From Escherichia coli (GTDB lineage Bacteria; Pseudomonadota; Gammaproteobacteria; Enterobacterales; Enterobacteriaceae): 23,492 bases of DNA. Position numbers and translations under genes: made by a program. The notes under the pieces are model-generated. The model had not been told where the DNA came from and searched no databases. It saw only the letters and a list, made by a program, of their open reading frames with translations. The stretch lies in NCBI RefSeq assembly GCF_003334765.1, contig NZ_QOWT01000046.1. One strand, 5' to 3'. Below, piece after piece: positions 21,227-22,930 of this stretch; position 1 is the stretch's first letter; each line of letters starts with the position of its first letter.

Positions 21227-21449
21227 TAAAACTCCTTAAAATCTTTACTTATCCTAAGTATAGTGTTATGGCGTAACGCCAATTGTTTTTATACACTTGA
21301 AAACATTGGGAAAAGTTGAGCTATATCTAAATTTACAAAATTGGATGTTATAGAAATCGAGGTTTCAACTAGGCATGGAACTGCAAAATTTTTAATGCCT
21401 GCACGCGAAAGTCGTTGGCGGGTCCTTTCCGGTGATCCAGACCGTTACG

Positions 21450-21461
21450 GGGCGGCGACCT
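21450..21461 (+). other. cosN cohesive-end site (lambda-type GGGCGGCGACCT)
   Basis: CGTTACGGGGCGGCGACCTCGCGG matches the lambda right-end/left-end junction; lies about 175 bp upstream of the nu1-like gene; a 14-bp inverted repeat (21557-21570 / 21598-21611) sits in the cosB position. Confidence 0.8.
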
Positions 21462-21636
21462 CGCGGTTTTTCACTATTTATGAAAATTTTTCAGGGAAAA
21501 TCGTGTCGGTACTTCTCGAATATAACTTTTTGTTTTTTTAATATTACATCCGTAAAGGTCCGACATGAAAGTGTCCGAAAATGCCTTTTTCTGGCGTTTT
21601 CATGTCGGGCCTTGTATTTGATAATGGGTTGTTTTC

Positions 21637-22185
21637 ATGAAGGTTAATAAAAAGAGGCTTGCCGAAATTTTCAACGTGGACCCGCGGACGATTGAACGCT
21701 GGCAGTCTCAGGGACTCCCTTGCGCCTCCAAAGGTAGTAAGGGCATTGAATCTGTATTTGATACTGCCATGGCAATTCAGTGGTATGCGCAGAGGGAAAC
21801 TGATATCGAAAACGAAAAGCTCCGCAAAGAACTGGACGATTTGCGTGCGGCAGCGGAGTCAGATTTACAACCCGGCACCATTGACTATGAACGCTACCGG
21901 CTCACAAAAGCGCAGGCAGATGCGCAGGAACTGAAAAATGCCCGTGAAGACGGAGTAGTGCTGGAAACTGAACTGTTTACCTTCATTCTGCAACGTGTGG
22001 CACAGGAGATTTCGGGGATACTTGTGCGTGTGCCGTTGACATTACAGCGTAAATATCCGGACATTTCACCATCACACCTTGATGTGGTGAAAACTGAAAT
22101 CGCGAAAGCCTCCAATGTTGCAGCTAAGGCCGGTGAAAACGTGGGCGGGTGGATCGATGATTTCAGACGCGCAGAAGGCAGCTAA
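21637..22185 (+). CDS. nu1: Terminase small subunit (Nu1-like)
   Basis: 182 aa; [23 protein letters not shown]... and [30 protein letters not shown] closely parallel lambda Nu1 as I recall it. Confidence 0.9.
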
Positions 22186-22930
22186 TGCAGCCGGTGCGAT
22201 AGCTACAGGGCTTTTATCTCTCATTATTCCTGTTCCACTGACGACAGTTCAGTGGGCCAATAAACATTATTACCTTCCTAAAGAGTCGTCTTATACCCCC
22301 GGGCGGTGGGAAACACTGCCGTTTCAGGTTGGCATCATGAACTGTATGGGCAACGATCTGATTCGCACGGTTATGCGTGGCTGGACGATTAAGGGCAAGC
22401 CCGCCAGTGGTCGGGCCGTATTATCTCAGGAACAGGACGGCATTAAATCGCACACCCACAGCGCCAGCGCATCCAGTACGGATTTGGGGACGAAAACCAC
22501 ATCGTCGTTTGATTACGGAACCAAATCCACGAATAACACCGGGGCGCATACCCATAGTATTAGCGGGACCGCAAATAGTGCCGGTGCGCACCAACACAAG
22601 AGTTCCGGTGCATTTGGTGGCACGAACACGAGCATTTTCCCTAATGGTTATACCGCGATTTCAAATCTAAGCGCGGGGATTATGAGCACAACAAGCGGTA
22701 GTGGCCAGACTCGTAATGCAGGGAAGACATCATCAGATGGTGCTCATACCCACTCGCTGTCCGGCACTGCTGCAAGCGCAGGCGCACATGCACATACTGT
22801 CGGTATTGGTGCTCATACGCACTCCGTTGCGATTGGTTCACATGGACACACCATCACCGTTAACGCTGCTGGTAACGCGGAAAACACCGTCAAAAACATC
22901 GCATTTAACTATATTGTGAGGCTTGCATAA
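22157..22930 (+). pseudogene. In-frame fusion: terminase large subunit N-terminus (about 70 aa) joined to a side-tail-fibre C-terminus
   Basis: N-terminal ...[39 protein letters not shown] parallels lambda gpA residues about 30-70; from about nt 22370 the product is GxHxH-repeat tail-fibre sequence ending [15 protein letters not shown]. Confidence 0.7.

Follow-up and report, generated by a model that had tools for sequence, protein, structure and literature searches.

The locus studied here raises the question of what kind of element keeps a phage packaging site and a complete small-terminase gene in front of an open reading frame that begins as a large terminase and ends as a tail fibre. The window, i.e., the whole stretch of Escherichia coli DNA that was analysed (23,492 nucleotides), begins within an exonuclease gene and ends within the tail-fibre assembly gene tfa, and therefore the size of the element and the status of int and xis were deduced from relatives. 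The window very probably represents most of a lambdoid prophage of the ompW-adjacent family, in which one illegitimate deletion of about 21.9 kb would have joined codon 72 of the large-terminase gene (gene 2, product gp2) to codon 840 of the tail-fibre gene stf at a TA dinucleotide. As an element it is nothing unusual, one more defective prophage like Qin and DLP12, and the process is ordinary prophage decay. The original prediction had described a defective lambdoid prophage that keeps cos and the small-terminase gene, and both are sequence-intact here.

The gene set of the window and its relatives is lambdoid (exonuclease, repressor region, O-like gene, Q, esterase and lysis genes). Megablast against phage records returned two separate matches near the end of the window, 21412-22373 and 22372-23492, which share two bases. 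The first comprises cosQ-cosN-cosB, gene 1 and codons 1-72 of gene 2 of phage 21 and is 98.9-99.6% identical to the phage 21 left end (M81255, X02501 and OL657228; phages including PhiR57_1 and ev017). The second corresponds to a tail-fibre 3' end with its tail-fibre assembly gene, at up to 97.9% identity in many lambdoid phages; this stf-tfa part of 1121 nt reaches 97.9-99.6% overall, the value of 99.6% being that against an intact prophage at ompW. With 925 nt at 99.6% (phage 21) and 1121 nt at 97.9-99.6% (stf-tfa), chance resemblance is ruled out. The start of the feature had been placed at 21342, a position without meaning, as the phage 21 homology starts at 21412. The remaining part of the window is about 98-99% identical to prophages adjoining ompW. 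A look-up of the repressor-like protein for a left flank of the same lineage gave only unrelated prophages, because this protein is widespread.

The coordinates of the cos sub-sites were carried over from the annotated phage 21 record by global alignment, and the packaging region reads as follows.

21420-21426, plus strand: cosQ (GGGTCCT), the packaging-termination sub-site, the same in lambda and phage 21 and at the offset of the phage 21 record
21450-21461, plus strand: cosN cohesive end, GGGCGGCGACCT, identical to bases 1-12 of phage 21 and lambda
21499-21614, plus strand: cosB of phage 21 type (R3, I1, inverted R2, R1)
21499-21514, 21555-21570 and 21598-21614, plus strand: R3, R2 and R1, respectively, all three identical to phage 21
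21523-21534, plus strand: I1, the IHF site, with a run of seven T residues (T7) versus eight (T8) in phage 21
21637-22185, plus strand: gene 1, terminase small subunit, complete, 182 aa, 549 of 549 nt identical to phage 21 gene 1

From 21412 on, the flanks of cosN are those of phage 21, and the global alignment contained four differences in 925 nt: the T run in I1 is shorter by one, an A/G difference lies at 21546 in the I1-R2 interval, and two substitutions are in gene 2. Lambda shares cosQ and cosN with the window, but its cosB is clearly different. Because of this difference, and because lambda Nu1 is only about 53% identical in amino acid sequence, the packaging module is assigned from its sequence to the specificity of phage 21 and not to that of lambda. 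The site had been called a lambda-type cosN, which holds for the cohesive end (on re-inspection it is present at 21450-21461, intact and the same as in lambda) but not for the specificity of cosB and gp1. The terminases of lambda and phage 21 package each other's DNA more than 1000-fold more poorly than their own, the specificity is seated in TerS-cosB, and termination at the downstream cos is independent of cosB (PMC4669245). A terminase with the specificity of phage 21 should still be able to cut the cos of the window, which should also be usable as a termination site by any lambda-like terminase; the shorter T run in the IHF site might make it a weaker cos. At a chromosomal cos21 of this kind, the chromosome could be broken by the terminase of a 21-type phage, with recombination stimulated as a result.

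The gene 1 product matched PHROG 57 ('terminase small subunit') over residues 1-182 (E 4.7e-65), carries PF07471 (Phage_Nu1) in the precomputed annotation, and is 100% identical to phage 21 gp1. It had been predicted as a complete Nu1 homologue; the reading frame is complete, but the word homologue applies only loosely, at about 53% amino acid identity to lambda Nu1. Between window and phage 21 there are no changes in the 549 nt of gene 1 versus four in the 376 nt of its flanks. The absence of changes could hint at selection or at a recent origin; it is, however, not significant, with a chance of about 0.09 at the overall divergence.

The reading frame that follows, and the gene behind it, are composed as listed here.

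22157-22930, plus strand: chimera gp2(1-72)::Stf(840-1024), 257 aa, starting at the gene 2 ATG
22157-22373, plus strand: gene 2 5' remnant, codons 1-72, 100% identical in amino acids to phage 21 gp2 1-72
22372-22373, plus strand: the deletion joint TA, common to CGGT-TA-ACCT of gene 2 and CTGA-TA-TGCG of stf
22372-22930, plus strand: stf 3' remnant, codons 840-1024 and stop; residues 73-257 of the chimera are 100% identical to Stf 840-1024
22930-23492, plus strand: tfa, tail-fibre assembly chaperone gene, cut by the end of the window; PHROG 105 ('tail fiber assembly'), E 1.3e-97

The start of gene 2 (position 709 of the phage 21 record) corresponds to 22157, and the Stf reference was the 1024-aa protein of the intact ompW prophage of strain PRO_A-1496. 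The joint was defined by a three-way alignment with both parents together with the BLAST coordinates: gene 2 reads CACGGT-TA-ACCTG, stf reads CCCTGA-TA-TGCGTGG, and the product CACGGT-TA-TGCGTGG. The alignment shows a simple illegitimate deletion whose two parents overlap by 2 bp. The original prediction had proposed an in-frame fusion of a large-terminase start to a tail-fibre C-terminus, with a switch from gpA-like to tail-fibre sequence after about 70 codons, at about 22360-22380. The switch occurs after 72 codons, at 22372/22373 and thus inside the predicted interval, and the fusion is in frame.

A full-length terminase large subunit is absent from this frame, which carries gp2 residues 1-72 only. 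The chimera has 257 aa versus the 642 aa of gp2, in which the segment KSARVGYT begins at residue 77, four residues beyond the remnant. By comparison with lambda gpA we take this segment to be the Walker A motif; the gp2 part ends before it, and the chimera is therefore without any catalytic motif of a large terminase. Pfam found no GpA domain in the chimera and only weak fibre repeats, while both halves were recognised by PHROGs, the stf remnant as PHROG 295 ('tail fiber protein', E 1.1e-90, profile positions 639-794 of 794). The N-terminal tail-attachment domain and the shaft of Stf are missing, since residues 840-1024 of 1024 alone are kept; the C-terminal receptor-binding region is present and is followed by its chaperone gene. 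The stop codon of the chimera overlaps the start of tfa (TAATG), and in two loci of the same lineage (L012 and L013) tfa encodes 194 aa.

In an intact relative at ompW, BR1220, the two breakpoints lie 21,871 bp apart. There, cos and the two terminase genes come after the sce7726/beta pair that the window also has, and behind them lie the portal, protease, capsid and tail genes, J, lom, an stf of 991 aa and tfa. The loss of the entire head/tail module, as originally proposed, is thereby confirmed: the head- and tail-building genes are all absent from the window, and what is left is cos21, gene 1, the chimera and tfa. Elsewhere in the window, IS5 (5212-6406) is located at the place of the DnaC-like helicase-loader and DUF1627 genes of BR1220, and both of these genes are missing.

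The in-frame fusion and the conservation of gene 1 bear on whether gp1, the chimera and Tfa could have been domesticated by the host, e.g., for interference with a phage-21-type terminase or for masking of the Stf receptor. The Nu1-binding region of lambda gpA comprises its first ~48 residues, and if this holds for gp2, binding of gp1 by the chimera could still take place; gene 1 shows 100% conservation, and Stf-C and Tfa have survived very many independent deletions. However, within these genes 54% of the TA dinucleotides fall on a codon boundary, and TA-to-TA joints with the stf site would for this reason be in frame about half of the time; the in-frame joint is therefore, by this argument from codon phase rather than by a test, no evidence of selection. 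Other joints at the same stf site come after preceding frameshifts or join arbitrary partners (capsid, lysozyme, ParB, tape-measure region), neither protein matched the PADLOC defence models, and expression would depend on late (Q-dependent) transcription, which triggers lysis as well. Domestication is accordingly regarded as improbable.

Among known systems, the Qin prophage of K-12 (cos-nohA-stfQ-tfaQ-pinQ) comes to mind, and a resemblance to its nohQ-stfQ-tfaQ arrangement had been suggested. The layout is indeed shared: both elements are lambdoid, have lost the head/tail module, and have cos and a small-terminase gene abutting the 3' part of stf, with tfa following. The Stf-C/Tfa DNA of Qin is 98.2% identical to that of the window over 1121 nt. 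Orthology, however, is not supported by the type of NohA, the locus or pinQ. NohA is lambda-type, 98% identical in amino acids to lambda Nu1 and about 53% to phage 21 gp1, and its gene is about 66% identical in nucleotides to the window. The K-12 joint connects lambda nt 719 (the 3' end of nu1/nohA) to stf nt 2120, and StfQ, unlike the chimera of the window, matches Stf 707-1024 throughout and has no gpA part. Qin adjoins ydfJ and carries pinQ, whereas the present element lies at the ompW/yciE/trp locus (as seen in a sister contig) and no invertase or resolvase gene follows tfa in the sister locus L012. Copies of Qin in other strains have different joints, i.e., gpA 1-350::Stf 766-1024 in W5-6, gpA ~1-350::Stf 840-1024 in F2_81, capsid::Stf 840 in L032 and gpA ~280::Stf 840 in L035.

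DLP12 (cos-nohD-terminase A fragment-tfa remnants) is similar in that cos, the whole small-terminase gene and the 5' part of the large-terminase gene survive, but differs in its lambda packaging specificity, its chromosomal locus and its left endpoints. In the DLP12-locus copies of FT130 and L034, Stf-C is joined at the same nucleotide as in the window. Phage 21 itself (OL657228, M81255, X02501) is identical in cosQ, cosN, R3, R2, R1 and gene 1, but has a 642-aa gp2 and a full morphogenetic operon, whereas gene 2 of the window ends after codon 72. The enterobacterial cos-type phage-inducible chromosomal islands likewise combine a helper-compatible cos with a lack of structural genes (PMC9026076). 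Those islands, however, are small and selected for transfer, and they bring genes of their own for integrase, regulators, replication and packaging redirection, while the present element is a decaying full-size prophage with a lambdoid gene set. In itself it adds little, being another lambdoid prophage on its way to a Qin/DLP12-like remnant.

Packaging of the element in trans by a cos-compatible helper had been considered possible, with lambda-type phages as the helpers to be tried. A lambda-type helper would be the wrong one, because cosB and gp1 are of phage 21 specificity and the barrier to cross-packaging is more than 1000-fold (PMC4669245); tests of mobilisation would need a helper of phage 21 specificity, not lambda. 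Packaging of the element as a unit is unlikely in view of its single cos, its size and the loss of the helicase-loader gene. The size was estimated from the BR1220 prophage, which measures about 48.9 kb between int and the ompW remnant, minus the deletion and allowing for other differences; the resulting ~27-29 kb are about 65% of the phage 21 genome (42.9 kb). The lower limit for packaging in lambda is about 78% of the genome length.

It is quite improbable, for similar reasons, that the element is a helper-dependent, satellite-like one whose cos (and gene 1) have been kept through regular packaging by a cos-compatible helper. Such a mode of life is known from cos-bearing chromosomal islands that hijack lambda-like helpers (PMC9026076), phages and prophages that share this cos and terminase are frequent in E. 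coli, and cos21 and gene 1 are sequence-intact. However, there is one chromosomal cos here, whereas published helper packaging involved two tandem cos sites (PMC4669245). The estimated 27-29 kb fall short of the 42.9 kb of phage 21, and with the helicase-loader gene lost beside IS5, concatemer formation and autonomous replication are doubtful. The genes present are those of a lambdoid prophage, unlike those of an island, which spans 10-15 kb and brings a primase and capsid-redirecting genes of its own, and late genes are still being lost in sister copies. Moreover, similar deletions in many other prophages took cos or nu1 as well, and retention of cos is therefore not a rule.

The defective prophage probably serves only as a passive cos site and as a gene donor in recombination, a remnant that would neither produce particles nor have any activity of its own. 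In K-12, lambda gains nu1/cos from DLP12, an exchange stimulated by cos cutting, and stf-tfa from Qin and Rac (PMC3945230). By analogy, gene 1 and the stf-tfa segment may be open to pick-up by infecting lambdoid phages via homologous recombination, and these conserved segments would be ready donors for mosaic phages.

The deletion is not confined to the window. The exact 257-aa chimera occurs in at least seven other Escherichia assemblies (7-9 contigs), for example in Escherichia sp. 4_1_40B, with database entries including EIG71195.1 that are named 'large terminase [Escherichia]'; the label is misleading, as three-quarters of the protein are tail fibre. The chimera-bearing contigs are 99.98% identical to the window. 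The junction DNA is identical in seven assemblies of different sources, among them a 2.7-Mb scaffold and two gut metagenomes, and on the scaffold the element is followed by yciE, yciF, yciG and trpA-E, i.e., the ompW locus. An artefact of assembly or chimera formation at the stf-tfa cassette, which is repeated in E. coli genomes (median three places per genome), is barely conceivable even though the exact junction was found in none of the complete RefSeq E. coli genomes, because the same junction DNA is present in these seven independent assemblies, k-mer assembly is unable to create a 2-bp overlap, and comparable joints are present in finished genomes. A further deletion of 2,865 bp, which takes the 3' end of the esterase gene and the lysis genes, is found in two of the assemblies and apparently also in both gut-metagenome contigs. 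Since the chimera and its junction are identical across at least seven assemblies, the deletion appears to be inherited, and taken together the comparisons point to a real, vertically transmitted deletion in a prophage whose decay is continuing.

The position of the joint within stf proved to be a recurrent one. When the chimera was searched against a collection of 5.8 billion proteins, Stf-C starting exactly at Met840 was found with many unrelated partners, including gpA (at several positions), Nu1, the major capsid protein, a ParB-like protein, lysozyme, the tail tape-measure region, J and others. The Met840 endpoint (GA-TA-TG, with the TA between Asp839 and Met840 in CCCTGA-TA-TGCGTGG) was used in at least ten DNA-verified and about 17 protein-level independent fusions, with different phage genes as partners and in prophages at ompW, Qin, DLP12-type and other loci. 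Ten distinct joints (the window, FT130, F2_81 and seven others that were examined at the DNA level) all read NNTA|TGCGTGGCTGG. For example, in FT130 (DLP12 locus) lambda A nt 2268 is joined to the exact stf nucleotide of the window. In B-1109, a sister prophage at ompW underwent a separate deletion that connects gene 1 nt 607 with stf nt 1763, and XJ34 (potB locus) uses the same gene 1 position. Three more joints are located at upstream TAs of stf, at nt 2436, 2472 and 2492; in the 85-bp stretch upstream of and at the Met840 point, all four TAs were used and no other position.

Nearly all joints examined cross at TA, in a context resembling CGGA-TA-YCCG; the exceptions are GG and AA overlaps and one longer imperfect homology. 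Compared with all 377 TA sites in the parent genes, the used sites are enriched in C-G-G-A before and Y-C-S-G after the TA, a statistic that was picked post hoc. We tentatively suggest, giving it somewhat less than an even chance, that the junction of the window is one product of an undescribed, sequence-preferring and TA-centred deletion process that would repeatedly remove the morphogenetic genes of lambdoid prophages of E. coli. If this is true, the cause would be a specific nuclease or recombinase, or else a fixed break site, and not random microhomology. Three candidate models would all fit: a T|A cut, blunt or with a 2-bp stagger, that is then ligated; an exchange of the serine-recombinase type; and joining by microhomology at a fixed break. 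No description of such a hot spot or pattern was found in the searchable literature, of which the coverage is incomplete.

Several other origins of the joints were considered and rejected. Random microhomology gave TA in 2-5% of simulated joints between these genes, as against six of the first eight joints for which the microhomology was defined. Codon-usage context was discarded as the source of the flanking bias, since the used sites differ from all 377 parental TA sites by the same post hoc statistic. For a Pin-type invertase acting on quasi-sites, the e14 sites read AAACC-NN-GGTTT and nothing similar surrounds the TA joints; in addition, the crossover would sit 12 bp from any GATAA-like motif. 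A type II topoisomerase with a 4-bp stagger is contradicted by the product TTAT, a hybrid of the parental TTAA and ATAT, and a paper on gyrase offers no consensus that fits. Transposition into an IS5 target (YTAR) or an IS-mediated adjacent deletion does not agree with the sites, most of which are unlike YTAR, and no IS is present at the joints. In CRISPR self-targeting the putative PAM and protospacer would remain, and a preprint reports short partial matches only. A mobile Stf-C/tfa cassette was also set aside: the right-hand limit of the shared sequence varies by locus and the partners are all co-oriented phage genes, and the events are therefore read as deletions in cis.

The TA hot spot is an interesting residue of this analysis and deserves a systematic survey before any claim is made. 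Should such a survey confirm it, this would point to a defined molecular process behind prophage domestication, and independent decay events could be counted by means of a simple sequence marker. The deletion of the lysis genes in the sister contigs also has its crossover at a TA, and its left site, GATCCTGA-TA-TTG, is closely similar to the stf hot spot.

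In stf, the gene for the side tail fibre, one position was used repeatedly as a deletion endpoint. Independent fusions of Stf to different phage genes, at least 10 of them verified at the DNA level and about 17 seen at the protein level, ended exactly at the TA between Asp839 and Met840 (CCCTGA-TA-TGCGTGG). In nearly all of the stf-associated deletion joints examined, the crossover was at TA. Several left-hand sites were also reused with different partners, i.e., nucleotide 607 of gene 1 (the phage 21 small terminase), nucleotide 719 of nu1 and nucleotide 1758 of A (the lambda small and large terminase genes). 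The hot spot in intact relatives is formed by the octamer CCTGATAT, of which five copies were present in the window vs. 0.62 expected, a number reached in none of 100 shuffles; the coding sense of these copies was mostly Pro-Asp-Ile/Met.

22372-22373, TA hot spot at Asp839/Met840 of Stf, also in the database loci L011, L029, L031-L040, L001, L002, L003 and L025
5230, 8104, 15891 (minus strand), 16270 and 23476, copies of the octamer CCTGATAT

At the locus of Qin, the cryptic prophage known from K-12, at least five different deletion joints were found among E. coli strains (L002, L003, L029, L032, L035 and L039). Not all of these joints can be derived from one another, and therefore the structural genes were lost on several occasions, whether as independent events or as nested steps. 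The sister contigs L012 and L014 share the window's terminase/stf joint and lack another 2,865 bp, corresponding to 16277-19141 of the window; this segment was apparently absent from L017 and L018 as well. The genes lost with it were the 3' end of the esterase gene, the holin gene, a YdfR-like gene, the lysozyme gene and most of Rz. One copy of the octamer forms the left endpoint of this deletion, and here too the crossover is at TA (GATCCTGA-TA-CCTGCAGG). The lysis cassette in the window's copy is apparently still intact.

Features noted in other regions of the window are listed below.

5212-6406 (flanks 5072-6808), complete IS5 of 1195 bp with an IS5-family transposase of 326 aa
6772-7884 and 7900-8901, plus strand, two adjacent ORFs of 370 and 333 aa
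14049-14298, three tRNA genes (anticodon CAT, Arg-TCG and Arg-TCT)
19597-20217, plus strand, 'sce7726 family' (P4 cII-like) gene
20159-21226, minus strand, 'beta family' gene

An O-like replication gene directly precedes IS5. The DnaC-like loader, DUF1627 and the 5' part of DUF977 of the intact relative prophage in BR1220 are missing, and therefore the replication module is defective too. The ORF pair, with a G+C of 0.385 vs. about 0.5 elsewhere, replaces the QueH region of relatives; neither ORF had a match in NCBIfam or PADLOC, and they possibly form a pair, so far uncharacterised, that serves as cargo or in defence. The sce7726 and beta genes (G+C 0.41), placed between the lysis genes and cos, matched the PADLOC models 'cll' and 'beta' plus PD-Lambda-2_C. 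Such genes belong to systems of the gop-beta-cII type; a gop-like gene was not seen. The CAT-anticodon tRNA is annotated as tRNA-Ile in a RefSeq relative, and a gene for a 617-aa SASA-family esterase lies downstream of the three tRNA genes, an arrangement presumably typical of Stx-phage-like late regions.

Public names of the chimeras (window 22157-22930, proteins P0016-P0135) follow the short N-terminal partner, i.e., 'large terminase', 'major head protein', 'ParB N-terminal domain-containing protein' or 'terminase small subunit', while the tail-fibre C-terminus makes up most of each protein so named.
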